Shown: one piece after another, positions 5,749 to 62,735 of the stretch
Position numbering within the stretch: position 1 is the first letter of the stretch
Layout of the letters: each line of letters starts with the position of its first letter
From: Acidimicrobiales bacterium
GTDB taxonomy: Bacteria; Actinomycetota; Acidimicrobiia; Acidimicrobiales; CATQHL01
DNA: 64,000 bases
Assembly (NCBI GenBank): GCA_965204655.1
Contig: OZ241998.1
Coordinates: 224,464 to 288,463 of the forward strand
Reading direction: 5' to 3'
Program-made: the position numbers and the translations under genes
Notes under the pieces: generated by a model
What the model was told of the DNA's origin: nothing
The model's input: the letters and a program-made list of their open reading frames with translations, nothing else
Database searches by the model: none

Positions 5749-8499
5749 GTGTCGTTGACGTCGGAAAGCGTGAGCATTGGGCTGTCGCGCTGTTTCACGA
5801 TTCCGGGGGTTCACCCCTACGACGCCGTGGAATGGTCGCTCCGGCGAGCCCTGATAAACGCCGCCGACACTGGGGATCCGATTTTTGATCAGCCCGACGT
5901 TGAGTTTCCAGCCTTCTGGTCGCAGAACGCCGTCAACATAGTCTCCCAGAAGTACTTCAGAGGCCGTATTGGCTCCCCGGAGCGGGAGTCCTCGCTGAGG
6001 CAGGTCATAGACCGGGTCGTGGACACCATTACCCGTTGGGGGGTTGAGGACGGCTACTTCGCCCACGAAGATGAAGCCGACACATTCAGCGCCGAACTCA
6101 CTTATTTGTTATTGCACCAGAGAGCGGCGTTCAACTCGCCTGTCTGGTTCAACATCGGCGTTCCGGACACGCCGCCTCAGTCCTCGGCGTGCTTCATCCT
6201 CTCTGTTGAAGACACGATGGAGTCCATTCTCGACTGGTACGCCGAGGAGGGGATGATCTTCAAGCGGGGGTCGGGGTCGGGCGTAAACCTGAGCAATATC
6301 CGCAGTTCGCACGAGCACCTCTCGGGGGGAGGGCGTCCGAGCGGCCCGGTCAGTTTCATGAGGGGTGCAGACGCCTCTGCCGGGGCGATCCGTTCCGGCG
6401 GCACCACGCGGCGGGCGGCCAAGATGGTGGTGCTCGACGCCGACCACCCCGACATAGAGGAGTTCATTTGGTGCAAGGCGCGCGAGGAAAATAAGGCTAG
6501 GGCGCTAGCCGAGGCGGGTTTCGACATGAGCTTTGACGGCAGCGACAGCGCTTCCGTCCTGTACCAGAACGCCAACAACTCTGTTCGACTCAGCGACGAC
6601 TTCATGCGGGGCGCCCTGGCGGGGTCGGACTGGCCACTATTTGAGCGCACCACGAAGGAAGTCGTATCTACGCTGCCGGCAGCAGGTCTCTTGCGTCAGA
6701 TCGCCGAGGCGGCTTGGCGCTGCGCTGACCCGGGGGTGCAATTTGATACCCACATCAACCACTGGCACACCACGCCGCTGGGAGGCCGTATCACGGCGTC
6801 GAATCCGTGCTCGGAGTATTTTCACGTTGACGATTCGGCCTGCAACCTGGCCAGTCTGAACCTACTGAGTTTTCTCAAGGAAGACGGACACTTCGACGTC
6901 CGTTCCTTCAGGTCGGCAACTCGGGTGGTTTTTGCCGCGCAGGAGATACTCGTGGGGCGGTCGCATTACCCGACGGAGGTCATAGCCGACAACGTCCTCG
7001 CTTATCGTCAGCTAGGGCTCGGCTACACCAACCTGGGGGCGCTGTTGATGAGCATGGGGCGTCCCTACGACTCCCCGCAGGGACGGGCGATGGCGGCGGC
7101 GCTCACGGCGGTGATGTGCGGGGAGGCGTACCTGACTTCGGCGGTGATAGCGGCGCGGATGGGGCCCTTTGAGCACTTCGAGGCCAACCGTCCGCACGTG
7201 TTGAGGGTTCTGGACATGCACCGCCAAGCGGTTTCGGAAATCGATTCCGATTTCGTCCCCGACGACTTGATGGCCGCCGCCTCGGAATCTTGGAACGGAA
7301 CCTGCGACTTGGCTTCGCGTACCGGGGTGCGCAACGCTCAGGCGACGGTGCTCGCACCCACTGGCACCATCAGTTTCATGATGGACTGCGACACCACCGG
7401 GATCGAGCCCGATCTTGCGCTGCGCAAGTCCAAGTCGCTGGTGGGGGGGGGGGCGCTCACGTTGGTTAACAGGTCCGTGCGGCGTGCTCTGTCCGCTCTG
7501 GACTACGGCCCAGCCGAGGTGGAGTCGATCGCCCGGCACCTCGAGCGGAGCGGATCGGTGCTCGACGCTCCGCACCTCTTAGCGGAACACCGTGCGGTTT
7601 TTGCCTGCTCCATCGGAGACAACGCAGTGAGTCCGCAGGGTCACGTGAAGATGATGGCCGCGGTGCAGCCCTTCCTCAGCGGGGGCATTTCCAAGACTGT
7701 CAACGTGGGGGAGCAGACCACGGTTGAGGAGATCGAGGAGTTGATCGTCTCGGCCTGGCGGCAGGGTGTGAAGGCCATTGCTGTCTACCGGGACAACTCC
7801 AAGTGGGTGCAGCCGCTCTCGGCGTCCTCGGATTCCGAGGCTGAGGCTCCTTCCGAAGGCGGGGACTTGTCTGCTCCGGCGCCGGAGCCAACTAGACGCA
7901 GGCTGCCTCGCGAGCGGCGTTCACGCACCCTCGGTTTCCGTGTAGCTGACTGCAAGGGGTATGTGACCGTCGGAGAGTATCCCGACGGGCGTCCGGGCGA
8001 GATCTTCGTGAAGGTGTCCAAGCAAGGCTCGACGCTGGCAGGGATAATGGACGCCTTCGCCATAGCCATCTCGCATGGCCTTCAGTACGGGGTGCCTTTG
8101 CGTTCCTACGTAGACGCCTACTGCGGGATGCGCTTTGAGCCGGCGGGCATCACCGACGACCCAGACATCCGCATCGCTACCAGCCTCATTGACTACCTGT
8201 TCAGAAGGCTGGGGCTCATCTATCTGAGCGAAGAGGAGCGGGCTGCGATGAGCATATTTTCCACCTCCGGAGAGCAGCCCACCCTCCCGGGCGTGGAGGA
8301 AGCCGCAACGCCCTCCGCTCAAGGCTTAGACATCGCCCCCGACCCGCCGATGCGGGGCGACGGAGCGTCGGCTCACGCTCCCGCGCCGCGCCGAGTGGAC
8401 GCCGCCTCCCCGTTCTGCATGACCTGCGGGACGCGCATGGTTCGCGTCGGGTCTTGCTACGCCTGCTCTACCTGCGGGGCTACTAGCGGCTGCGGCTGA
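5749..8499 (+). CDS. nrdJ: Vitamin B12-dependent ribonucleotide reductase (class II), 916 aa, with a C-terminal Cys4 zinc ribbon
   Basis: Class II RNR core motifs (NPCSEY, GGISKTVN). C-terminal CMTCG...CYACSTCG ribbon. Length typical of actinobacterial NrdJ. Confidence 0.9.
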   Translation: MSLTSESVSIGLSRCFTIPGVHPYDAVEWSLRRALINAADTGDPIFDQPDVEFPAFWSQNAVNIVSQKYFRGRIGSPERESSLRQVIDRVVDTITRWGVEDGYFAHEDEADTFSAELTYLLLHQRAAFNSPVWFNIGVPDTPPQSSACFILSVEDTMESILDWYAEEGMIFKRGSGSGVNLSNIRSSHEHLSGGGRPSGPVSFMRGADASAGAIRSGGTTRRAAKMVVLDADHPDIEEFIWCKAREENKARALAEAGFDMSFDGSDSASVLYQNANNSVRLSDDFMRGALAGSDWPLFERTTKEVVSTLPAAGLLRQIAEAAWRCADPGVQFDTHINHWHTTPLGGRITASNPCSEYFHVDDSACNLASLNLLSFLKEDGHFDVRSFRSATRVVFAAQEILVGRSHYPTEVIADNVLAYRQLGLGYTNLGALLMSMGRPYDSPQGRAMAAALTAVMCGEAYLTSAVIAARMGPFEHFEANRPHVLRVLDMHRQAVSEIDSDFVPDDLMAAASESWNGTCDLASRTGVRNAQATVLAPTGTISFMMDCDTTGIEPDLALRKSKSLVGGGALTLVNRSVRRALSALDYGPAEVESIARHLERSGSVLDAPHLLAEHRAVFACSIGDNAVSPQGHVKMMAAVQPFLSGGISKTVNVGEQTTVEEIEELIVSAWRQGVKAIAVYRDNSKWVQPLSASSDSEAEAPSEGGDLSAPAPEPTRRRLPRERRSRTLGFRVADCKGYVTVGEYPDGRPGEIFVKVSKQGSTLAGIMDAFAIAISHGLQYGVPLRSYVDAYCGMRFEPAGITDDPDIRIATSLIDYLFRRLGLIYLSEEERAAMSIFSTSGEQPTLPGVEEAATPSAQGLDIAPDPPMRGDGASAHAPAPRRVDAASPFCMTCGTRMVRVGSCYACSTCGATSGCG

Positions 8500-9656
8500 G
8501 CGGTCTTTTGAGAAGAGCGCTCCCTCCAGCAAAAGTTTTCCATGGGAGGGCGCTCTCGCAGGCTCACTAGTGGGCTCTTCGGCTCCGTTCGGGTGTTGCG
8601 CTCGTTTCGCTCATCGGGCAGCAACGTCTCCCAGATGCCGGAGGGGTGTTCCACCCCTGCCCGCTCCAGTACCACCTGCATGATTTCTAGGGCTTGCGGC
8701 GCTAGTTCGTGAAGCGGACGATTGCGGTGCAGGCGTACGCCGAGGTCAACCTGAATGATGCTCCCAGCGCCGAACTTCGCAGAGAGGTCGATTAGCAGAC
8801 CGACCTCCACGCCGTAACCCTGGACGAAGGGAACTTGCATTGCTGCGCTGCGGAGGACGGCGTATTCGCCGGAGAGCGGCTGGCGGATGTGAGAGAGTTC
8901 AGGGAAGAACATCGCCAGCAGAGGACGGGCAACCAGTTCGGTAGTGCGTCCTCCGCCTTCGGGCTTGTTGTTTAGCCAGCGCTGGTAGCAGCCCTTGACG
9001 AGGACGATCTCCTCTTCGGCGTGGGCGTCGTCGGTTTCCAGGAACGGGGAGAGCAGTTTGGTCACGTAGCCAGGGGAGAAACTCAGCAGATCGGCGTCGC
9101 AGTAGACGATGATGTCGGCGGCGGTCACAGCCATGGCTTTCCAGAGAGCGTTTCCTTTGCCGTGCCCAGGGCCGACTTCTCCCAGTAGGTCTCTCACGTC
9201 GACCACCTTGGCGCCTGCTTCCGCAGCCACTTGCGGGGTGTTGTCTTCGGATTCGTGGAGCACCCATAGTTCGTCCACCAGAGGCGGGGCGTCCGGGGAC
9301 ATCAGGTTCTTTCTCACGGCGTCGCAGATGACGCCGATGGTGGCTGCTTCGTTTAGGGCGGGCAGGCACATGGCAACTCGCTTGCCCGCTTTTCGATCGG
9401 CGAGGGCGGCGGCTTCTTGGAGGTGCGTCGAGTCGCCGTGGCCCAGAGCGCTGGGGGTGTCATTGTTTTCGTGCACTCCTACAGGTTGTCGCCAAGGGAG
9501 GTGTTCCGCAACGCAGTCCCCTTTGCGGGGCTTGGCTAGGCCGCTCCTGCGGGTCGCCGCCGAATTAGGAGGCTGCAGTCGGCGGCTTGTCGTCGAGAGT
9601 GGGGGATGCTTTCGGGTTCTTAGAAGGGGCGCTGCCCGCGAGTAATCTTTGGGCAT
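8457..9656 (-). CDS. gpgS: Glucosyl-3-phosphoglycerate synthase (GT81 glycosyltransferase). The probable true start is the internal ATG at 9371.
   Basis: Strong similarity to mycobacterial GpgS blocks: LPALNEAATI, DADL, GRTTELVARPLL, QPLSGEYA, GYGVEVGLLID, LGVRLHRNRPL. The 3' end overlaps nrdJ by 43 bp, convergent. Confidence 0.8.
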   Translation of the reverse strand: MPKDYSRAAPLLRTRKHPPLSTTSRRLQPPNSAATRRSGLAKPRKGDCVAEHLPWRQPVGVHENNDTPSALGHGDSTHLQEAAALADRKAGKRVAMCLPALNEAATIGVICDAVRKNLMSPDAPPLVDELWVLHESEDNTPQVAAEAGAKVVDVRDLLGEVGPGHGKGNALWKAMAVTAADIIVYCDADLLSFSPGYVTKLLSPFLETDDAHAEEEIVLVKGCYQRWLNNKPEGGGRTTELVARPLLAMFFPELSHIRQPLSGEYAVLRSAAMQVPFVQGYGVEVGLLIDLSAKFGAGSIIQVDLGVRLHRNRPLHELAPQALEIMQVVLERAGVEHPSGIWETLLPDERNERNTRTEPKSPLVSLRERPPMENFCWRERSSQKTAQPQPLVAPQVEQA

Positions 9657-50642: not shown

Positions 50643-52439
50643 ATGAAACAGTCCTCCATACGCAACGTGGCCGTCATCGCTCATATCGATCACGGAAAGT
50701 CCACGCTTGCCGACCGCTTCCTGGAGGTCTGCGGGGCGGTCGATCCCCGTCTCATGCGCGCCCAGTACCTGGATTCCATGGATCTCGAGCGTGAGCGCGG
50801 GATCACCATCAAGCTTCAGAGCGTTCGTTTGTCTTTCGGCCCCTGGACGATCAACCTGATCGACACGCCGGGGCACGTGGATTTCGGCTACGAGGTCTCC
50901 AGATCGCTGGCAGCCTGCGAGGGCGTGATACTGCTCATAGACGCGGCGCAGGGTATTGAGGCGCAGACCCTGGCAAACAGTTACGCGGCCTTGGAGGCAG
51001 ACCTGCAGATGGTGGTGGCGGTGAACAAAATCGACCTTCCCGCCGCCGACCCCGACGCAGTCTGCCGTGAGGTGGAGCAGGTTTTAGGAATACCAGCCGA
51101 GGAGGTCTGCCGGGTTTCAGCCAAGACCGGTGAGGGGGTCAAAGAATTGTTGGAGGTAGTGGTGGAACGCGTGCCTGCACCCGTAGGCGATCCGGAGGCA
51201 GCCCTTCAGGCGCTGGTGTTCGATTCCTACTTCGACCAGTACCGGGGGGTGATCAGTTCGGTGCGCGTCTCGCAGGGGAGGCTGCGCGCCGGGATGCAAG
51301 CCATTCTCATGCACGCCGCTAGCAGTTACGAAGTTCAGGAGTTGGGCGTTCGCACGCCCCTTCGGGAACCGACCGACTCCCTGGGGCCAGGGGAGGTGGG
51401 GTATCTGATCATGGGCGTGAAGAACACGTCCGAGGCGCGTTCGGGGGAGACGGTCACCGATGCCGCCAACCCTGCTTCCGAACCTCTAGCGGGTTACCAG
51501 GAGCCGAAGCCCATGGTCTTCTGTGGTCTCTACCCAACCGACGGCGAGGAGTACCCGAACGTGCGGGATGCTCTGGATCGGCTGAGGCTGAACGACTCCA
51601 GCTTCAGCTACGCGCCTGAGGTGTCTACAGCCTTGGGTTTCGGATACCGCTGCGGTTTTTTGGGTTTGCTGCACATGGAGATCATCGTTCAACGCCTTGA
51701 GCGGGAGTTCGACCTGGACATAATCGCCACGACGCCTTCCGTGGAGTACCGAGTCACGACCGCGGGGGGGGAGGAGGTGTCGGTGGAGAGCCCCAGCATG
51801 ATGCCGCCAGCGGGGGAGGTCAAGAGCATCGCCGAGCCGTACCTGCTGCTGAGCATCATTGCCCCGTCAGATCACACGGGCACACTCATCGATCTGTGCC
51901 AGAGCCGACGAGGACGGCTGAAGAGCCTGGAGTACGTCTCCCCCGAACGCATCGAACTGCGCTATCGAGTGCCGCTCGCCGAAGTCGTGACGGGTTTCTA
52001 CGATCAGCTCAAGAGCCGCACCCAGGGCTATGCCAGCCTGGACTACGACCCTGCTGGCTACGAGGAATCCGACTTGGTGAAGGTGGACCTGCTCCTGCAG
52101 CACGAATCGGTTGACGCTTTCAGTGCCATCGTTCACCGCGACCAGGCGTACTCCTACGGCCGCAGGATGACAAACAAACTGCGCGAACTCATTCCCCGTC
52201 AGCAGTTCGACGTTCCCATCCAGGCGGCCATCGGGGGACGGATCATCGCTCGTGAGACTGTCAAGGCTTTCCGCAAGGACGTCACGGCAGGCCTGTATGG
52301 GGGCGACGTGACACGCAAGCGTAAGTTGTTGGAGCGTCAGAAGGCCGGCAAGAAGCGCATGAAGTCTGTAGGACGGGTGGAAGTGCCTCAGGAGGCGTTC
52401 GCGGCGGCCCTCAAGATGGACAACGCTGCGGGCTCCTGA
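50643..52439 (+). CDS. lepA: Elongation factor 4
   Basis: G-domain [21 protein letters not shown]. LepA C-terminal domain. Confidence 0.95.
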
Positions 52440-53532: not shown

Positions 53533-54612
53533 GTGACGGTAATCGATTACTACGATGTGCTCGGTGTCTCCCCGCAGGCGACCTCGGAGGAGATCAAGAC
53601 CGCCTATCGTCGGTTGGCAAGGGAATACCATCCAGATCGCAACCCAGACGACCCTGAGGCTGAGAAGCGCTTCAGGGAGGTTGCGACTGCGTACGAGGTG
53701 CTGAACGACTCGCAAAAGCGCGCTCACTACGACCGTTTCGGCACGGCGGACTCCGTGTCTGATCCTTTTGATATTTTCTCCACGCTCTTCGGGGGTCTTG
53801 GTTTTGACGTCGACCGCCGAGCCGCATCCAATGTCGGCGAAGACGTCGAAGTTCTGCTTGAGTTGGACTTTGCTGACGCTGTCTTCGGAGGCACTCAAGA
53901 AATCAGTGTGAACCTGCCCGTGCCTTGCGGGGAGTGTGAGGCCACCGGCTCTCAGCCGGGCACCGAGGCGCTCTCGTGCGAGGAGTGTTCCGGCACGGGT
54001 CGTGTGAGGCAACTGACTCAGTCGATCCTAGGGCAGATGATGACCACCGGTCCTTGCAGGCGTTGCAAGGGGACGGGACGTCTAATTCACAACCCGTGCA
54101 GGGCCTGCAGGGGGAGAGGACGGCTCCGAGGCGAACGCACTTATCCGCTCGAGGTTCCTCCAGGGGTGGACAACGATACGATTTTGCGGCTTCCAGGCAA
54201 AGGGGGCGTGGGGCCGGTGGGGGGTGCCTACGGCGACCTGTACGTGACGATAAAGGTGCGCCCCCATCCGGTTTTCCAGCGTGAGAAGTACAACCTCATC
54301 ACCCGTGCGGAGGTCTCTTTTACGCAAGCCGCTCTTGGCGGAATCCTGAAGCTTGACACCCTCGATGGATGCGAGGAGATACGCATCAAGCCGGGTACGC
54401 AGTCCGGCGAGGTCGCCGTTTGTAAGCGCAAGGGAGTTCCGTCTCAGCGGGGAGGCGGCCGCGGTGACCTGATCGTGGAGATCAGGGTTGCTACCCCGAC
54501 TGACCTCGACGACCGCCAGTCGGAACTGTTGCATGAACTGGCGCTTCTGCGCGGCGAGCAGGTCGATGCCGGGCGCAGGCTCAGACGTCTGCGGTCATCT
54601 TTCAAGCCTTAG
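53533..54612 (+). CDS. dnaJ: Chaperone DnaJ (Hsp40)
   Basis: J-domain with HPD ([10 protein letters not shown]). Four CxxCxGxG zinc-finger repeats. Confidence 0.9.
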
Positions 54613-55976
54613 GGCTGGGAGAATGTAGGCAGTTCCCAGGTGCCCTGTCGGTGGACAGCCTCGAGTCGGTCGCACGCGCCGTTGGGGGTTTTCTTGATCC
54701 GGAGGGGAGGTGCCAGTTCTTCCACCAAAGCAGGGGCGAGCGGTTCGTCTTCCGGCCAGGAGTCGAATACGTACACCTTGCCCGAGGCTTCGGCCAGAGC
54801 CAGAGTGGATACCCCGTCGCAGTTCCAGTCCCCCACGAGCAGTTGGTCGTTGGGGCTTCCTACCGGAAAGGGGTCGTCGTTGATCGAGACGAATCCGGCG
54901 CCGACGGTGACCCGCTCGGCGCAGCCGTCCCCGGTGACGTCGAGATATCCAGGAGATACCGGACGGCATTGTTCGTCCTGCGGAGTCAAATGATCGGCTG
55001 CGGCAGCGTTCAGCGGCTGAGTAGTGGCCGCCGCTTCCTCCCGGGAAGGTTCACGTTCAACGTAGGGGGCGTATCCCCCCGTTTCGCCTGTGATCGCATT
55101 GGGTGGGTCGTCTCTTTTCAGGAGTTGCAGGGTCATGAAAGCAAGAGCGAGGAGACCCGCAAGAATTCCTGCTGCCTTCAGCAGGCTGCGGCGCTTCACC
55201 GGGCGGAGGTTCTTGAGGCGGCCTCTAGCCGCGCCCGGCATCGCGTGCCCAGAACTCCTATAGTGCTCTGCCTCTTCAGGGCGGCTTGATTTCGGGCTAG
55301 CGCGCGGGGCGGCGACGTCCTCCACTTCGCTTGGTGAACTTCGTGTTGATGTCTCCCGTCCGGCCAAACTTCGCAACTGACCTTCCAGGTTGGGGGCGGA
55401 GCGCACCCGTCCTTCCGCAGCCGCTTTAGCCACACCCCTTATCCGTTCAAAAAGGCGTTTGTTATGCCGTCGCAACCTCTGTGGGGCGCCGTCGATTACC
55501 TTGAGCAGCGTCTTCCCCAGGGCGGCTATGTCTTTTGCCGCTAGGTCGCTAGACACTCCTGATTTCTCGGTTTTCCTAGCTGAGGAGAAGCTGCAGAGGA
55601 GAGGCTGCTGGGATGCCCCTATGAGTACATGGTCAGAGCAGACGTTCAGGTGAAAGAGGTTTTCCCCATGCAAGTAGGCGAGAGCGGCGGCCAGGGCTTC
55701 AAAGACGGCTAGCAGGTCTTCCGTTCTCCTGGGTTGCCAGGTGCTCAAGGAGTGTCGCCCGGCGTAACGGGTCAGTAAGCGCGGGCCTTCTTCTCCGTCC
55801 TCCAGAACAGCGAGAGAGACCACGCCCGGGTGCTCGAGCTCCCTGAGCAAGTCTGCCTCTCTGCGCAGCGCTGCGGGATCTCCTCCAGTCTTGGCGGTGA
55901 CAAGTTCGCCATTCCAAAGATCTGTCCTAATTTCCATATATTTAGCATATATATAATCATTTTCAATCAAATACAA
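54609..55976 (-). CDS. Membrane-anchored protein-kinase-fold protein, probable pseudokinase, with an extracellular FG-GAP-like C-terminal domain. The likely real start is the ATG at 55937.
   Basis: Kinase-like N-lobe with VAIK-like Lys (LVTAKTGG). Catalytic loop degenerated (HLNVCSDH in place of HRDLKPxN). No DFG. One TM helix. GDWNCDG repeats. Confidence 0.5.
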
Positions 55977-56000
55977 TACTAATGCAGAAAATTAGAACCT

Positions 56001-59000
56001 TCAGATGCTGGAAAATGGATTGGGGGTGGCTGGACGGGTGTCCTTTCCGCCATGAACGGTGGGTTCGCAACACCACTGCCAGCGGAGAGCATCTAGGGGA
56101 TCCAGAACAGACTTGGGCAACCCCAGGATTTCAAGCACAACGGCTTTATCCAGGGCGCGGCGGGTCGGGTCATTCCAAGCCTCATTGGCAGGAAGGAACT
56201 CCTCGGAAGCGAAGTAATTGAAAATGCATCTAGCAGTTGCGATTTCCTTCTCTGACAGGCGACGGGGATCTAGCGTGGGGAGTTCCGGAAGTCGGGAGAT
56301 CGTGATGTTGGCCCGGCCTTGGTGCTGCCGGGTTCCTAGCCACCAGAATCCGATAAGACCGAAAATCGAGTTTGCCCACAGAACAGCGAGGGGCTCCCAG
56401 TCGGGGTTGTCTAGGGTAAAACTCGGCCAAGCAGCTCCACCGATGCTCTTCTCGGGGGTCAAACAAGCCGCTAGTGGCTGAGAATTGAGCCGAAAGTTGC
56501 GAGTGAAATGCAATCGTGATGCCGTTTCCCAGACTTTCGCAGCTAACTTTTTGCAACCTTCACGGGTGCGGCCTTGAGCATCAATTCCAACGAATAAGCG
56601 GGTTTCGCGTAGGGCGTCGTGTCCCCATAGAACGGGGAAGGTGGCTCTCTCGCCGCTAGCGAGAGGGTGGATGTTGAACGGCCCGCGCGGGGAGCCATCC
56701 GAGTTCGTGCCATCAATATCTCTATCAACGAGACCGCGTTTGCCTAGTTCCGCTAAGCACGCCATGGGTATTGGGCAATCCTGTCCGAGACGCGGTAACG
56801 TCAGCGTGCCGGAGTTGAGCCCAAGCGCCGCTTCTGCTACGTCCACTTCCTTTACCTGAGCGCAGCCACCCTCGTCCAAGGGGGCTTGAATGAAGCTTCC
56901 CACTTGTTCCTCACCGATTAGAAGATGCCCTTTTCTGGTGTTGGTTCCCGTGGAATGGATAGCCTTTCCAATCTCCACTGCCTCGGGAATACTCTGAGGG
57001 CGTCTATTCAGGTTCACCCACATCACGAGGTCGTCTGCCCGAGCGCGGTCTTTGCAACTGCGGGTCGCAACCAACAGGGCTTCCGCCATTCCCGTGTCGG
57101 CGGAAAAGGCGCGCTCGGTTGAGCCGGCCGAAGCAATCGTTATCACCGTTACGTCGCTGTATTGAGACGCAATCAGACTGCGTGCTGATTTCCAGGACGC
57201 CCCTCTTGTAAATGCGGCGGGCAGAACCAGGGCGAGTATCCCGCCGGGTTTCACTTTGGAGTGTGCGAGGTCTATGAAGTTGGATGCCAGCCCCGCGTTT
57301 CCATGGCCTGCTCGGGACTTCGGGTACGACTTGTAGATCTTGCGCAGTCTGTCCGACATGGCGCGCTGTTCCTCATCTGTGGTCCCGAATCCTGCGAAAG
57401 AAGGCACGGGTACCCCTGCTGCTTCTGCCCTTGCGTGATTGGTGGGACTAGTGAACGGAGGGTTCATTATCAACAAGTCGGCGCTCTGATGCTCGCAAAC
57501 AGTTTCCGACGCTATTTCGCCTTTACCTGACGCTGCAGTACGCCCGCTGCCCCATAGGGGTCGCGGCGAAAACTCGGAGTCGAGCAGGTCGAGCGACCCT
57601 ACTGAAATTTCCCCCGCAGTTCCGGTTCGCTCACCGTAGGGGAGCAGGTGAACGCAAGTCTGCTGGAAGGTGGTGTCCGGGTGCACGCTCGCGAGCATTG
57701 AGGCGGTGAGGTGCACCGCCGCGGGCATGATGTCTGCGCCGATGAGAACGGACTCCATCATTTTTGCGTGCAGGTCTGCGTCGTCGATTCCTCTCCTGCG
57801 CATCCGCGCCCCGACGCGGTGGTAGACGGCTGAGAGCAGTGCGCCTGTGCCGCACGCTAGGTCTGCGAAACGAAGTGAGGCCAGAGCGGTCTTGAGGCAT
57901 TCCGAGGACTTGACGCGCTCGGTGGCATTCAAGGGTGCTAGGCGGGTGACTGCCAATTCGGCTAGCAGATGAGCGGACGCTGGCAGCGTGTAGAAGGTTG
58001 CCAAGAATTTGCGGTCGCCTATCAATGTGCCAAACATTTGACCGGAGAGGTCGCCGGTAGTGGTGGCCCCCAGACCTAACAGATCGGTGGCCACTGCATT
58101 GAGGTGTGTGATGATTTCGGCAGCCACGCCTGCGGGTACTTCCCGAAGCACGTCCCGTGCCACGGAGAATATTGGCCAGTAATTAATTTCAAGTATTGAA
58201 GCCCAGGTATTGAGGAGTTTCTCGTGGTTGATCAGCCCGTCTGTGGAGCGTCGCAGTTCGTCGGCCGAAGGTCTTAAAATCTCTCCTCTCTCGGAGGCGA
58301 TTGAGTAGTTGAAAACGAGGGCGTTGGTGATTATGGCGCATGCCATGCGCCAAACATCCACCCCTGCTTCTTGATGGAGAGACGCTGCTACGGCGCGCCC
58401 TGCTGAGGTATATGACGATCTCTCCGAAGGGTCGGCGAAGGTTTTGTTCAGCAGGGCTGCCGCGGTCTCCACTCCATCGGCAAATTGCTGAGCCGCGGCT
58501 TCTACAGTCGCTTGGGAGACGGCCGCCCTTTCTATGAAACCGGCAAGGTCATCCAGGCTTCCTGAGATCCAGCCGCTGGCAGGGAAGCGACGTGTGCTGC
58601 CCGGATCACGTGAATGAAGAGAGTGGATGCAGTATTCAAATCTGGGTGCTTGCTCCTCGGAACTGGGCATATCGAGCAGTTCTGTGAGGTGTTTCTGTTC
58701 GGCGCTGCGCAGCGCTTCGGGGATTCTGACTGCAACGGCCTGGTCTACCGGCACTCCCCCGAATTCCGGGGAATAGCGTTCACCCAAGCGGGTGATTGCA
58801 TCCTCTTCCACTTCTCTGGCTGGGTGGTACTCGGTCTCTATGAGCACAGGCCGCCAGCCAGGCGGCCTGGCCACAATGTCTGGCTGCTTAGCCGTCTGCG
58901 CGCTCAGCACGCCAGTGCTCTCGGCCTGCATTCTCCACCCGCTAGTAAACCGCTTGGCTAGGGCTGTGCTTAGACAAGCGTTCAGCGCCTGTTCGGATGT

Positions 59001-59015
59001 TCTTGCTTCTCGCAC
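56001..59015 (-). CDS. Type IIG (Eco57I-like) restriction-modification fusion candidate: N-terminal PD-(D/E)xK-like module plus gamma-class N6-adenine DNA methyltransferase plus a long C-terminal (TRD-like) region. 1004 aa.
   Basis: Motif I FADLACGTGALL then motif IV LIMNPPF (gamma-class order). N-terminal PD-x13-ETE matching Eco57I spacing (PD-x13-EAK) but with K replaced. Size about equal to Eco57I R-M (997 aa). Confidence 0.6.
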   Translation of the reverse strand: MREARTSEQALNACLSTALAKRFTSGWRMQAESTGVLSAQTAKQPDIVARPPGWRPVLIETEYHPAREVEEDAITRLGERYSPEFGGVPVDQAVAVRIPEALRSAEQKHLTELLDMPSSEEQAPRFEYCIHSLHSRDPGSTRRFPASGWISGSLDDLAGFIERAAVSQATVEAAAQQFADGVETAAALLNKTFADPSERSSYTSAGRAVAASLHQEAGVDVWRMACAIITNALVFNYSIASERGEILRPSADELRRSTDGLINHEKLLNTWASILEINYWPIFSVARDVLREVPAGVAAEIITHLNAVATDLLGLGATTTGDLSGQMFGTLIGDRKFLATFYTLPASAHLLAELAVTRLAPLNATERVKSSECLKTALASLRFADLACGTGALLSAVYHRVGARMRRRGIDDADLHAKMMESVLIGADIMPAAVHLTASMLASVHPDTTFQQTCVHLLPYGERTGTAGEISVGSLDLLDSEFSPRPLWGSGRTAASGKGEIASETVCEHQSADLLIMNPPFTSPTNHARAEAAGVPVPSFAGFGTTDEEQRAMSDRLRKIYKSYPKSRAGHGNAGLASNFIDLAHSKVKPGGILALVLPAAFTRGASWKSARSLIASQYSDVTVITIASAGSTERAFSADTGMAEALLVATRSCKDRARADDLVMWVNLNRRPQSIPEAVEIGKAIHSTGTNTRKGHLLIGEEQVGSFIQAPLDEGGCAQVKEVDVAEAALGLNSGTLTLPRLGQDCPIPMACLAELGKRGLVDRDIDGTNSDGSPRGPFNIHPLASGERATFPVLWGHDALRETRLFVGIDAQGRTREGCKKLAAKVWETASRLHFTRNFRLNSQPLAACLTPEKSIGGAAWPSFTLDNPDWEPLAVLWANSIFGLIGFWWLGTRQHQGRANITISRLPELPTLDPRRLSEKEIATARCIFNYFASEEFLPANEAWNDPTRRALDKAVVLEILGLPKSVLDPLDALRWQWCCEPTVHGGKDTRPATPNPFSSI

Positions 59016-59192
59016 AGCCGGGAAACGTCCTTCCTTGCGGGTTGTTACTTTTCCGGTCTTTCCGCCAGATGCCGTCGCTCAAATTAGGTGCAGCCGGCGC
59101 CTAATCGGGCGCTCAAGCGGAACTAAGCATAAAGCAGATCTGAGAAGGAGTCAGGTATTTACGTTAGAGGAAGCGGAAAATATTAAAAAATA

Positions 59193-59423
59193 ATGAAAAT
59201 GTATGGAAACAAGAGCTTGAGGGAATTAGCAGGAACTGGAGAGCATCCTCCTTGGATGCAGGCAGCAGATGAGCAATGGACTTTTTTGTACCGCTGTTAT
59301 AGATTGCTATGTTTTAAGGGCAGTCGAACTTTGGCGGCAAAAAAGTTAATAGCTATTGCTCCAATATATGGATCTAGACGGCACGTATGGAGAAGTCGTA
59401 GAGACACTAAACGCAATAGCTGA
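59193..59423 (+). CDS. Small hypothetical ORF (76 aa) inside the about 45% GC spacer
   Basis: ORF only. Lys/Arg-rich. No recognisable domain. Confidence 0.15.
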   Translation: MKMYGNKSLRELAGTGEHPPWMQAADEQWTFLYRCYRLLCFKGSRTLAAKKLIAIAPIYGSRRHVWRSRRDTKRNS

Positions 59424-59563
59424 GACCGCCGAAGTTGTCATGTCCAATAAAGGAAGCAATCCAGTCGACTCGGGTTTTAGAGCATTTGATTAAATTTTTT
59501 GTGTGCAGAAGATTCAAACAATAGCGCCTGCTAGTGCTGACAAAAAATAATTAGCCGTAACGC

Positions 59564-61184
59564 CTAGAATGCTTTGAGTTGTTTGGAGTCCTCTTGCCCG
59601 GTGAGTGGGTTTACCATTGGGGGCACTTTGGCTGGGCGATTGTCAAAGTACAGGTCGATAGACCAGAGTTGGAGGCGCGGGTAGTCCATTGCGCCGATTT
59701 TGAGATCGGCCATGCCTAGCGCAACTTTTTTAGCCGTGGGGCTTGAAAATGGTTCCAGAGTGATGAAGATACCTGCTGCCGCCTCTTGGTCTTCTATCTC
59801 CCTAGCGAAAGCTTTTACTTGATCAACGTTTGGGACGCCACCCTTCACCTGAGCAAGTAAGAGGGTTGAATCATGATTATCAGGGGTAGTGACAAGGTGC
59901 CCCCTGCCATCTATTCCACCGTCTGCAACTTGTCGGTCGTTTGGCGCGAGGCCGGGGATTCTTGTTATCGCCCATTTTTCAAAGTCAAATGGACGATCTT
60001 TGGCTAAGCGACGGGCTGCGGCGAGATTGACAGGGATGCCGTGAATTGGGAATTCAACACCGGGAAATCTCTCCTTGCGAATAACATCGATAGCAAGAGG
60101 CGAAATGTCAATCCCAACCCAGTCCAGACTTAAATTTCTTGCTGCTTCTATAGTTGTTCCGCAACCACAAAATGGATCTAAGACCAGATTTCCTCTGGCG
60201 GAAGAAGCTTTGATGATTCTTTCAAGCAGCGCGACGGGTTTCTGAGTGGGGTAATCAAGGCTCTCATTATCATTTGTTAAATTGTTTATATCAGTCCATA
60301 AATTTCCAAGTGGCTTGCCCTTGTAGTCTCTTGCATATGACTTCCTCAATGGACGCTTGCCATCTCTCCAGATAATCTCGCCCTTATTGTCCATTTCAAT
60401 CAGCTTTTCTTTTGACACTCGCCATCCCGAGGGATGAGGATTGCTCACCCCCTTGTATTCGTAGCACAAGTTTGGCCGTGCCCCCATTGACGGCTGACGA
60501 AAAAGCGGAGTACCTGTGTTATATCGGCCTCTAGAGTCTTCTTCAGGAAATTTTACCTTCATTTCTTCTTCTGAGAGAATTCTGTATATTCCATTGAACT
60601 GCGATTTCGCAGACTTGCCGTAGAACAGGATGATGTCACAGTCATTTCCGAATGTCTTTGGAGCGTGCTGGCTTCCCTTTGCTCTGCCTGCTGCTCGCTG
60701 CCAGGTGATCTCATTGCGGAATTGCTTCGCTCCGAACACGGCGTCCATTACCGCTTTGAGGTAGTGAGAGGCTGTCGGGTCGCAGTGGAGATAGATGCTG
60801 CCTGTACCTTTTAGTACCCTGTGGCATTCTGCGAGGCGCTCTGCCATGTACGACAGGTATGCCAGCATTCCTGTCTCCCCAAGGGCTATATGTAGCCCCT
60901 AATAACATCGTGAGCAGGGTGGCTCACGGCTTTGCTCAAGCTTTCGACTCTTTGAATGGCTGCTTCGTCCCACTTCCATGTATCGGTGAAAGCTTGTGTT
61001 TGGGCCGTTTTGTCACCCCTGTTACCGAAGAGAATGTTGTAGTTGGCGTTTGAGTTAAAGGGTGGGTCTAGATAGATGAGGTCTACACTCTCAGATTCCC
61101 ACTGCCTTTGGATATCTAAGCAATCTCCGTAGTAAAGACTGTTTCTAGCGGGGAGAGATCCGGGGGGGGGGGGGGGGGGGGCAT
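59564..61184 (-). pseudogene. Beta-class (N4/N6, DPPF...DPFCGCGTT) DNA methyltransferase, companion of the RM fusion. Disrupted as assembled: ATG followed by a C20/G20 tract that is out of frame, an N-terminal fragment (61160-60886) containing LYYGDCL...DLIYLDPPFN, a frameshift at about 60870-60900, and then the main ORF 60868-59564.
   Basis: N-fragment frame gives NSLYYGDCLDIQRQWESESVDLIYLDPPFNSNANYNILFG... and ends in TAG at 60886-60888. The main ORF carries RVLKGTGSIYLH and motif I LDPFCGCGTTIEAA. Eco57I-type systems have a separate MTase of about 540 aa. Confidence 0.6.
61162..61181. repeat. G20 (C20 on the coding strand) homopolymeric tract immediately after the ATG of the beta-MTase. 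Candidate slipped-strand phase-variation switch.
   Basis: Counted 20 consecutive G at 61162-61181, followed by CAT (ATG on the minus strand) at 61182-61184. Confidence 0.8.
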
Positions 61185-61221
61185 TAGATTAGAGACTAGA
61201 TGAAAGCTAGTACTCTTGCGG

Positions 61222-61259
61222 GAATTAAATCGCGCGACTGCAACAATTAAATCGCGCGA
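61222..61259. promoter_or_regulatory. Two exact 16-bp direct repeats (AATTAAATCGCGCGAC) spaced 22 bp apart, 40-75 bp upstream of the beta-MTase ATG. Candidate regulator binding site.
   Basis: Exact repeat at 61222-61237 and 61244-61259, separated by TGCAAC. Lies in the presumed promoter region of the minus-strand MTase. Confidence 0.4.
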
Positions 61260-61466
61260 CAGACCAATTCGTGTGTTGGGGTAGAAATAAAAGGGGGACT
61301 ATACAAATGGCTGCGGTAGCGCCTGGTGTCTTAGACGGGTTCTTGGGGAGGGTGTGTGGTTAACTGGCGGAGAGTTCTGGGAATTCTTCCGTTTTCAAGT
61401 CTGCGATGGTTTGCGGGTGTGCTGAGCCGGACGTGGACGCCCCTGCGACGGGCGGGCGGTGGCGCC

Positions 61467-62735
61467 TCAGCGGTCCTGGATTTTGATGTAATCGCGCTTG
61501 GGGTGACCTACGTAGAGTTGGCGCGGGCGCGCTATGCGGGAGTTCCGCTCCATCATCTCGTTCCAGTGCGCCAGCCAGCCCGAAGTGCGCGGGATAGCAA
61601 ATAGCACGGTGAACATGGTGGTGGGGAAGTTGAGGGCTTGATAGATGAGCCCGGAGTAGAAGTCCACGTTGGGATACAGACGGCGGCTCACGAAGTAGTC
61701 GTCGGCCAAGGCCACTTCCTCAAGCTTGAGGGCGATGTCCAGCAGCGGGTTCTTGCCAACGTGAGCGAAGACGTCGTCTGCGGCCTCCTTGATGATCTTG
61801 GCCCTCGGGTCGTAGTTTTTGTAGACCCTGTGGCCGAAACCCATGAGGCGGGTCTTCCCGCTCTTGACGTCGGAAATGAAGCCGTCCACGTTCTCGAATG
61901 AGCCGATTTCGTTCAGCATCTTCAGCACGGCTTCGTTCGCTCCGCCGTGACGAGGGCCGTACAGCGCCGCACAAGCTGCAGCCACCACCGAGTAGGGGTC
62001 GGCGTGCGAACTCCCCACCACTCTTGCTGTGGTGGTTGAGCAGTTCTGGCTGTGATCGGCGTGCAGGATGAACAAAATATCGAGCGCGCGGCTTATCGCC
62101 GGGTGGCATTCGTAGCGCGGTTCAGCTACACGGAAAATCATAGAAAGGAAGTTCGTGGCGAAGTCCAGATCGTTGTCGGGATAGACGAAAGGCATCCCGA
62201 TAGAGAAGCGGTGGGCGGCGGCGACCATCGTCGGCACTTTGGCGATGAGCCGCACTATCTGGTTTCTCCTGATTTCCGGGTCGTCTACCTGCTTGGCCTC
62301 GGGGTAGAAAGCAGACAGCGCCGCAATTGAGGAGATGAGCATCCCCATCGTGTGAGCGTCGTATCTGAAGGCCTCAATAAAGCGCTTGAGGAAGTTCTCG
62401 TGGATATAGGTGTGGAGGGTGATTTCTTCTTGCCAGGCTTCGTATTCCTGCTTGTTGGGGAGATCACCGTTAAGAAGGAGGTAAGCCACCTCTAGATAGG
62501 TGGAGCGCTCCGCGAGTTGTTCGATGGGGTAACCCCGATAACGCAGGATTCCTTCGCTCCCTACTATCTCAGTGATTGCGCTTTTTCCTATGGAGGTATG
62601 GCTGAAGGACTCGTCAGAGAACCAGATGCCGCCTAGGAGTTTCGCCCACTCTTTGGATTCCACGCCACCGTTTTGGATCGGAATTTCCACGGAACGGCCG
62701 TTCCTGTTGTCTGTGATGGTGATGGACTCGGTCAA
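61467..62735 (-). CDS. gltA: Citrate synthase (type II, hexameric-type)
   Basis: LHADHSQN...GHRVYK..DPR motifs. 422 aa. Confidence 0.9.
   Translation of the reverse strand: MTESITITDNRNGRSVEIPIQNGGVESKEWAKLLGGIWFSDESFSHTSIGKSAITEIVGSEGILRYRGYPIEQLAERSTYLEVAYLLLNGDLPNKQEYEAWQEEITLHTYIHENFLKRFIEAFRYDAHTMGMLISSIAALSAFYPEAKQVDDPEIRRNQIVRLIAKVPTMVAAAHRFSIGMPFVYPDNDLDFATNFLSMIFRVAEPRYECHPAISRALDILFILHADHSQNCSTTTARVVGSSHADPYSVVAAACAALYGPRHGGANEAVLKMLNEIGSFENVDGFISDVKSGKTRLMGFGHRVYKNYDPRAKIIKEAADDVFAHVGKNPLLDIALKLEEVALADDYFVSRRLYPNVDFYSGLIYQALNFPTTMFTVLFAIPRTSGWLAHWNEMMERNSRIARPRQLYVGHPKRDYIKIQDR

Follow-up and report, generated by a model that had tools for sequence, protein, structure and literature searches.

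The window analysed here is a stretch of 64,000 nucleotides (nt) from an Acidimicrobiales bacterium (NCBI GenBank assembly GCA_965204655.1, contig OZ241998.1, positions 224,464 to 288,463), and the feature under study is the 5' end of a DNA methyltransferase gene on its minus strand. On this strand the ATG start codon of the gene (61182–61184), which is preceded by ...TCTAATCTA, is followed directly by a homopolymer of exactly 20 C (C20, 61162–61181; G20 on the plus strand). The sequence reads CTA ATG, the 20 C, and then GGA TCT CTC CCC GCT AGA AAC AGT CTT TAC TAC GGA GAT TGC. Behind the tract lies the N-terminal coding segment (60886–61161, minus strand; GSLPARNSLYYGDC...DLIYLDPPFNS...HDVIRGYI*), which was recognised by translation and by PF01555, displays the catalytic motif IV (DPPF) and ends with a premature TAG. 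The rest of the methyltransferase, assigned by translation and Pfam, comprises the target-recognition region, motif I (FCGCGTT) and a C-terminal Mrr_cat-like domain and is found in a third frame at 59564–60895 of the same strand.

The methyltransferase frame behind the tract encodes ...GSLPARNSLYYGDCLDIQRQWESESVDLIYLDPPFNS and comes into frame with the ATG only at tract lengths divisible by three, i.e. 18 or 21 C. With C20 the frame of the ATG terminates after 22 codons, and the methyltransferase frame of the window offers no ATG, GTG or TTG from the upstream TAA down to the DPPF motif. The arrangement of ATG, C20 and methyltransferase N-terminus given in a preliminary description of this DNA was thus confirmed letter by letter, and its statement that C20 is out of frame and that 18 or 21 C restore the frame is borne out by the frame reading. 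C20 is the longest homopolymer of the 64-kb window (61.4% GC), and the only other homopolymers exceeding 7 nt are G11 (7443–7453) and G8 (51764–51771). Since a zero-order model (p(G or C) ~0.31) predicts about 5e-6 runs of at least 20 nt for 64 kb, counting both strands, C20 is not a chance event. Contingency loci are recognised by a mononucleotide tract of at least 9 nt in an open reading frame (ORF) or promoter, the length of which sets the frame. C20 behind the ATG is such a tract and represents a candidate slippage switch, presently out of frame.

The reconstructed protein matches PF01555 (N6_N4_Mtase) over residues 34–369 with 147 bits (E = 8e-43, cutoff 26.7). Its motifs follow the order of the beta-class, with DPPF about 40 residues from the start, DPFCGCGTT at about residue 340 and the recognition region in between, in agreement with the earlier assignment as a beta-class methyltransferase carrying the tract at its 5' end. 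The C-terminal match to Mrr_cat is weak. The nearest solved relatives by sequence (PDB) are CcrM, M.MboIIA and M.RsrI and, more weakly, EcoP15I Mod (E = 5e-9). The parallel to phasevarions drawn in the preliminary description implies a Type III mod gene, which did not hold. The best PADLOC model is of Type II (PDLC03354, E = 9e-62), compared with E = 5e-32 for the top Type III model, and no res gene (helicase-nuclease) was found beside the methyltransferase, the neighbours in the window being citrate synthase and a methyltransferase-like gene of 1004 amino acids (aa). At related loci of the donor type described below, the methyltransferase gene is flanked by a gene of the HIT family and by an AAA_15/AAA_21 ATPase gene in convergent orientation. 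A Type III Mod subunit is ruled out by the Type II best model and by the missing adjacent res gene, and the gene is predicted from its motifs and profile matches to encode a solitary beta-class N6/N4 DNA methyltransferase.

The copy in the window is interrupted a second time. A G4 run at 60896–60899 (minus strand) gives rise to a −1 frameshift located 283 nt downstream of the tract, and the methyltransferase frame meets a TAG at 60888–60886. This frameshift is restricted to this genome; G5 is found in the same local sequence of the relatives L037, L001 and L039/L040, which read through (...HDVIRGLHIALGETGMLAYL...). Behind DPPF the ORF spans 60 codons in the window versus 501 in every relative. 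Gene callers report the third-frame part as a 434-aa ORF (59564–60868, starting from an ATG at 60868), a call which is likewise made in relatives with an out-of-frame tract. If the tract of the window genome were shortened to C18 or extended to C21, the product would still be no more than a fragment of 99 aa. The earlier wording of a switch in the OFF frame was therefore correct in that the copy is OFF, but it is not merely OFF, since the G4 frameshift also breaks the gene. The window copy, which combines the OFF tract with the change from G5 to G4, belongs to a putatively phase-variable family, has most likely been inactivated recently and is probably dead. Annotation for this genome would accordingly be that of a frameshifted pseudogene rather than of a 434-aa protein.

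Nine distinct loci with intact 5' end were compared, the window included (L035 and L036 count as one, as do L039 and L040). The nine align well over about 60 nt upstream of the start codon and over the coding sequence behind the tract, and in all of them the ATG is followed within 0–4 nt by a poly-C tract, with lengths of 9, 10, 11, 12, 17 and 20. Directly behind the ATG, the window has C20-GGA, L037 has C17-GGA and L041 has C11-AGA; the ATG is followed by ACTG-C9 in L001, ACTG-C12 in L042, AG-C11 in L038 and AGCA-C10 in both L039/L040 and L043. All of these are OFF. The sequence A-C11 in L035/L036 is ON. Comparison of the window with L037 revealed 99.14% identity over 14.4 kb with 118 substitutions and 4 indels. 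Two of the four indels are located in this gene, namely the 3-nt difference in the tract (20 vs 17) and G4 vs G5, and the tract is thus polymorphic in length between close strains with conserved flanks. Lengths of 9–12 are found in alleles that are 86% identical at the nucleotide level. Clustering of the 434-aa ORF at 90% identity yielded 14 proteins, ten with 434 aa, two with 251 aa, one with 518 aa and one with 538 aa; the members P0129, P0134 and P0138 lie outside the locus comparison.

The 538-aa protein of this cluster, P0131, begins with MTPPPDRALPSKNSLYYGDC. It is encoded by CTA ATG A C11 GAT AGA..., with the tract read as Pro-Pro-Pro, and the poly-Pro leader proposed in the preliminary description is thus real in an in-frame relative (MTPPPD...). 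Homologues that are full-length at about 50% identity begin 0 to about 10 residues before LYYGDC. Together with the in-frame reading of P0131 from the same ATG, these start positions indicate that the ATG is the real start codon and that the tract is translated. A start elsewhere, which would leave the tract untranslated and had been named as a condition refuting the switch, is excluded. Ahead of DPPF no in-frame ATG, GTG or TTG is present in the window or in six of the seven out-of-frame relatives, and the in-frame allele begins at this ATG. The sole exception is L038, which has an in-frame TTG just past LYYGDC that was taken by its gene caller.

Although seven of the eight relatives lack an in-frame start, the ORF from DPPF to the stop codon is intact (501 codons) in all eight. 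The 89 codons from the tract to MLAYL represent the part that is untranslatable in OFF copies. In pairwise comparisons (Nei-Gojobori), the ratio of nonsynonymous to synonymous substitution rates (dN/dS) of these codons is 0.04–0.19, with dS up to 0.67, and that of the remainder of the gene is 0.03–0.13. An otherwise intact ORF under purifying selection is thus seen in eight of the nine loci, the window copy with its second frameshift being the exception. The low dN/dS of the 89 codons indicates that translation of the N-terminal segment has occurred in the course of evolution, as predicted for a reversible frame switch and not for a dead gene.

Immediately upstream of the ATG, alignment of the relatives revealed a conserved region (CTAGCTTTCATCTAGT..CTA; 61185–61216, minus strand), which lacks a Shine-Dalgarno sequence and might be the promoter of a leaderless or near-leaderless mRNA. 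In the relatives this region reads TTGCA(A/G), 17 nt, TAGTAT, 7 nt, ATG, and the −35-like and −10-like hexamers suggest a leaderless transcript. Adjacent to it, a 22-bp unit, GTCGCGCGATTTAATT(GTTGCA/CCCGCA), is duplicated in tandem in the window (61217–61260, minus strand), with a single copy in the relatives (GC[CT]GCGCGATTTAATT...TTGCA). The duplicated stretch holds the palindrome TCGCGCGA, and the single copy of the relatives overlaps the −35-like TTGCA. It might serve as an operator or reflect a rearranged promoter, in which case the duplication would be of functional relevance. Searching 58800–61700 against Rfam at permissive thresholds gave one match at chance level (E = 0.94), and a known RNA element was rejected.

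We consider the gene family a sound candidate for a contingency switch, with a probability of about 0.7, in which the poly-C tract would act as a hypermutable simple-sequence tract directly behind the start codon. Slipped-strand mispairing during replication would add or drop C residues. At one third of the lengths the ATG would be in frame, and the complete enzyme of about 540 aa, headed by a short poly-Pro stretch, would be made; at the other two thirds translation would stop after about 20 codons. The outcome would be a heritable and reversible ON/OFF state of the methyltransferase and hence of its methylation pattern.

Several observations weigh against this interpretation. The count of a homopolymer of 17–20 nt in an assembly is uncertain by at least one base, and no consensus sigma-70 promoter reached the threshold in a scan upstream of the window ATG. 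Eight of the nine loci are OFF, which fits a random phase (P ~0.14 under 2/3 OFF) but also a loss of use. Both pairs that share the sequence between ATG and tract, window/L037 (20, 17) and L001/L042 (9, 12), differ by exactly 3 nt and are in the same OFF phase; the chance of this is about 0.11, and simple random slippage gives no account of it. The window copy carries the second frameshift at 60896–60899. Moreover, the gene appears to be lost frequently, as indicated by this frameshift, by 5'-deleted remnants in other lineages and by its absence from the strain L044.

Some of these points are shared by explanations in which no switching takes place. Long homopolymers are the commonest class of consensus error in long-read as well as short-read data, and both breaks of the window copy are situated in homopolymers and require one additional nucleotide each. 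The true sequence might therefore contain 18 or 21 C and perhaps G5, leaving the gene intact and constitutively ON, and the window sequence alone would imply no switch. However, the two near-identical genomes of the window and L037 differ by only 4 indels in 14.4 kb, which indicates a low rate of indel errors, and both G11 and G8 of the window are read in frame within long intact ORFs. The G11 run at 7443–7453 of the plus strand (GTG GGG GGG GGG GCG, V G G G A) lies in an intact 916-aa ORF (5749–8499), which, judged by eye, we take to resemble a class II ribonucleotide reductase. This run is prone to slippage within a gene that is probably essential, and it provides an internal control for the reading of an 11-nt homopolymer. 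L037, a separate assembly, has C17 in the same OFF phase. The alleles with 9–12 C are reproducible between independent assemblies, C11 being found in both L035 and L036 and C10 in both L039 and L040, and are also mostly out of frame. Agreement of independent assemblies in combination with the in-frame G11 indicates that the tract is real and that its length differs between strains. Of the sequencing error considered in the preliminary description, it thus remains that the exact count may be off, but the tract itself is not an artefact, and a miscall as the explanation of the locus is quite unlikely. An acquired cassette that is unused in its host and erodes, with poly-C as a mutational hotspot devoid of adaptive switching, would account for the two frame breaks of the window copy, for the absence of the cassette from a sister strain, for the 5'-deleted remnants in other lineages, for the eight of nine distinct loci that are out of frame and for the ATPase neighbour that is reduced to a 230-nt remnant. 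Against such decay, dN/dS is about 0.1 across the whole gene, the startless part of OFF copies included, the body of the ORF is intact in eight of the nine loci despite dS of up to 0.67, and ATG and tract are kept in every 5'-intact copy, one of which is in frame. For the family as a whole decay seems improbable; the window copy by itself may well be decaying, as the contingency switch proposed here already allows.

Non-heritable recoding would reconcile mostly out-of-frame copies with purifying selection. RNA polymerase slippage on the C run, perhaps at the extreme 5' end of a leaderless transcript, or ribosomal frameshifting on the CCC codons would yield some in-frame product at any tract length, and the tract would tune the level of expression instead of switching it. 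Long homopolymers are known to cause transcriptional slippage in other bacteria, no Shine-Dalgarno sequence precedes the ATG, and the TAGTAT located 7 nt before the ATG in the relatives would place the tract at about position +4 of the mRNA. However, the known cases of slippage mostly involve A/T runs, the promoter assignment is weak, and the window copy would not be rescued, given its second frameshift. Recoding as the principal mechanism is considered highly improbable.

A homopolymer that sets the frame at the start of a methyltransferase gene is a known design, found here in an unusual host and on a mobile cassette. A survey of phase-variable mod genes used 9 nt as criterion for mononucleotide repeats, describes G tracts in the Type III mod genes of Helicobacter and Campylobacter and lists a mod gene with simple-sequence repeat in Corynebacterium casei (PMC5909438). 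For Streptomyces coelicolor, PMC4365076, citing Sumby and Smith 2003, states that the G tract of pglX phase-varies, its changes in length turning a phenotype on and off at 1e-2 to 1e-4. Phase variation by homopolymer tracts with reversible frameshifts, e.g. glpK 7C, is described in Mycobacterium tuberculosis (PMC10334774; bioRxiv 10.1101/717272). These three cases stand against the preliminary description, which knew of no actinobacterial example. In Campylobacter jejuni, the Type IIG gene cj0031 contains a poly-G tract, and frame switching changes the methylation pattern (PMC4889913).

The window family resembles the Type III phasevarions (H. pylori modH with poly-G, Haemophilus/Neisseria modA) in its beta-class fold of the N6-adenine type, in the simple-sequence tract within the 5' coding region that complies with the 9-nt criterion and sets ON and OFF by frame, and in alleles with different central recognition regions (P0010–P0012 vs P0001). 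In contrast to these systems, the window gene lacks an adjacent res gene, scores better with Type II models and has a C-terminal Mrr_cat-like domain, and its tract is situated immediately behind the start codon and reaches 17–20 nt. Moreover, its host belongs to the uncultured Acidimicrobiia and is no host-adapted pathogen, and the likeness concerns the gene sequence, not a regulon. With pglX of S. coelicolor (Pgl, BREX type 2) it shares a length-changing G/C tract in an actinobacterial DNA methyltransferase gene, but PglX, a large enzyme of the gamma-class, acts together with PglW, PglY and PglZ, whereas the enzyme predicted here is a 540-aa beta-class protein encoded on a cassette of its own. 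Like cj0031, it would represent homopolymer frame switching in a methyltransferase other than Type III; in cj0031, however, restriction and modification are fused in one enzyme and the tract is internal, and the only hint of a nuclease in the window protein is the weak Mrr_cat-like match. The tracts of M. tuberculosis are likewise G/C-run frameshifts of an actinobacterium, but they measure about 7 nt and are located in metabolic or virulence genes, as opposed to 9–20 nt at the start of a methyltransferase in the window family.

The methyltransferase gene lies in a 2.2-kb cassette (59202–61400, minus strand) with a GC content of about 50% versus 61% for the window. The cassette is absent from the 95%-identical strain L044, in which nothing separates citrate synthase from the 1004-aa gene. 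Between about 61236 and the stop codon, the nucleotide sequence is 85–87% identical to donor-type loci, in which the methyltransferase gene is situated between the HIT-family gene and the convergent ATPase gene. In the window a remnant of the 3' end of the latter was found on the plus strand (59246–59470), with 75% nucleotide identity over 230 nt to positions 7304–7532 of L039. The 76-aa ORF at 59193–59423, which overlaps this remnant, has no family match. In L038 the convergent ATPase gene (7595–9466) is split into ORFs of 334 and 247 aa, compared to a single ORF of 627–643 aa elsewhere, suggesting that the partner gene is decaying too.

LepA of the window shares 78–79% identity with LepA of metagenome-assembled genomes (MAGs) named Acidimicrobiia and 74% with P0220, which is taken to lie on one contig with L039. 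The methyltransferases of the window and the L039-type host, however, are about 90% identical. This difference indicates that the cassette, comprising promoter region, ATG and tract, moved horizontally between lineages of Acidimicrobiia. An alternative allele of the central recognition region (P0010–P0012, 387 aa; P0127 and P0128, 251 aa) is present as 5'-deleted remnants in all copies found. At L002 (4610–5836), L003 (270–1498) and L045 (3880–4756), these remnants are fused to the end of the intergenic region of the HIT gene, with loss of DPPF and tract. Sample labels (PANK22-1) and relatives suggest that the loci originate from sponge metagenomes. A reef-microbiome resource, in which 371 public sponge metagenomes were reassembled, cites the Pankey 2022 sponge study (PMC13083261).

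In a more far-reaching and rather doubtful reading, a solitary methyltransferase gene, equipped with a promoter of its own and a poly-C switch close to the start, would constitute a mobile contingency cassette, moving between distantly related uncultured Acidimicrobiia that are apparent sponge symbionts. Movement is supported by the identities of LepA (74%) and methyltransferase (about 90%) between the two hosts, and by a C9 tract in a homologue from another phylum. If true, stochastic switching of epigenetic state or phage defence would be a shared and transferable trait of animal-associated uncultivated bacteria lacking indel repair of the MutS/MutL type, and, where an mRNA that may be leaderless begins with a tract of 17–20 nt, transcriptional slippage might also set expression, in place of DNA length alone. 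Work on phase-variable methyltransferases has so far been almost confined to cultured, host-adapted pathogens, whereas the hosts considered here are uncultured Acidimicrobiia. If the tract switches within populations, the symbionts would gain heritable and reversible variation of their methylomes, with possible effects on gene regulation, and such variation would be relevant to defence against phages and to the exchange of genes in dense communities associated with a host.

Beyond the nine loci, 48 loci with more distant homologues were compared, and in 47 of them no homopolymer of at least 7 nt was found within 220 nt upstream of DPPF. L018 and L029, which come nearest among the 47, have QPPD or QPPE encoded where the tract would lie, and the tract may have grown from a Pro-Pro codon pair. 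L026, a Thermodesulfobacteriota MAG with 37% GC, encodes a 56%-identical homologue with C9 at the equivalent codons. This C9 is out of frame with a TTG start codon that is preceded by the Shine-Dalgarno sequence AAGGAGG, and L026 is a second occurrence of the same design, probably an independent one. Three C9 tracts (2320, 8681 and 8750), that of the methyltransferase included, are present within 12.9 kb of L026. Its methyltransferase frame ends after 178 codons and the C-terminal part matches 3 kb downstream, and the gene thus seems to be interrupted. Searches found only relatives of up to 63% identity in species-representative genomes, only relatives of up to 56% identity and no further tract alleles in JGI metagenome contigs, and no relatives in viral contigs, so that the gene is not evidently phage-borne.

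Adjoining the cassette, a low-GC gene pair on the minus strand (54609–59015) encodes proteins of 1004 and 455 aa. The pair is also present in L044, which has no beta-class methyltransferase. As the 1004-aa and kinase-like genes occur there without the cassette, the methyltransferase is not an obligate partner of the 1004-aa gene. Membership in Pgl/BREX type 2 or MADS is not supported, since the full sets (PglW, X, Y and Z, or mad1–8) were not found above the curated cutoffs and only sub-threshold hits were obtained. The 1004-aa protein has no Pfam match; it displays motifs resembling those of gamma-class methyltransferases (ADLACGTGALL, NPPF), weak Type II/IIG hits and sub-threshold hits to mad2 (3e-7) and PglX (6e-3). 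The 455-aa protein contains a weak Ser/Thr kinase domain and scores 26.6 bits with MAD6 (cutoff 460) and 21 bits with PglW (cutoff 990). Together, the two genes possibly represent an uncharacterised defence module.

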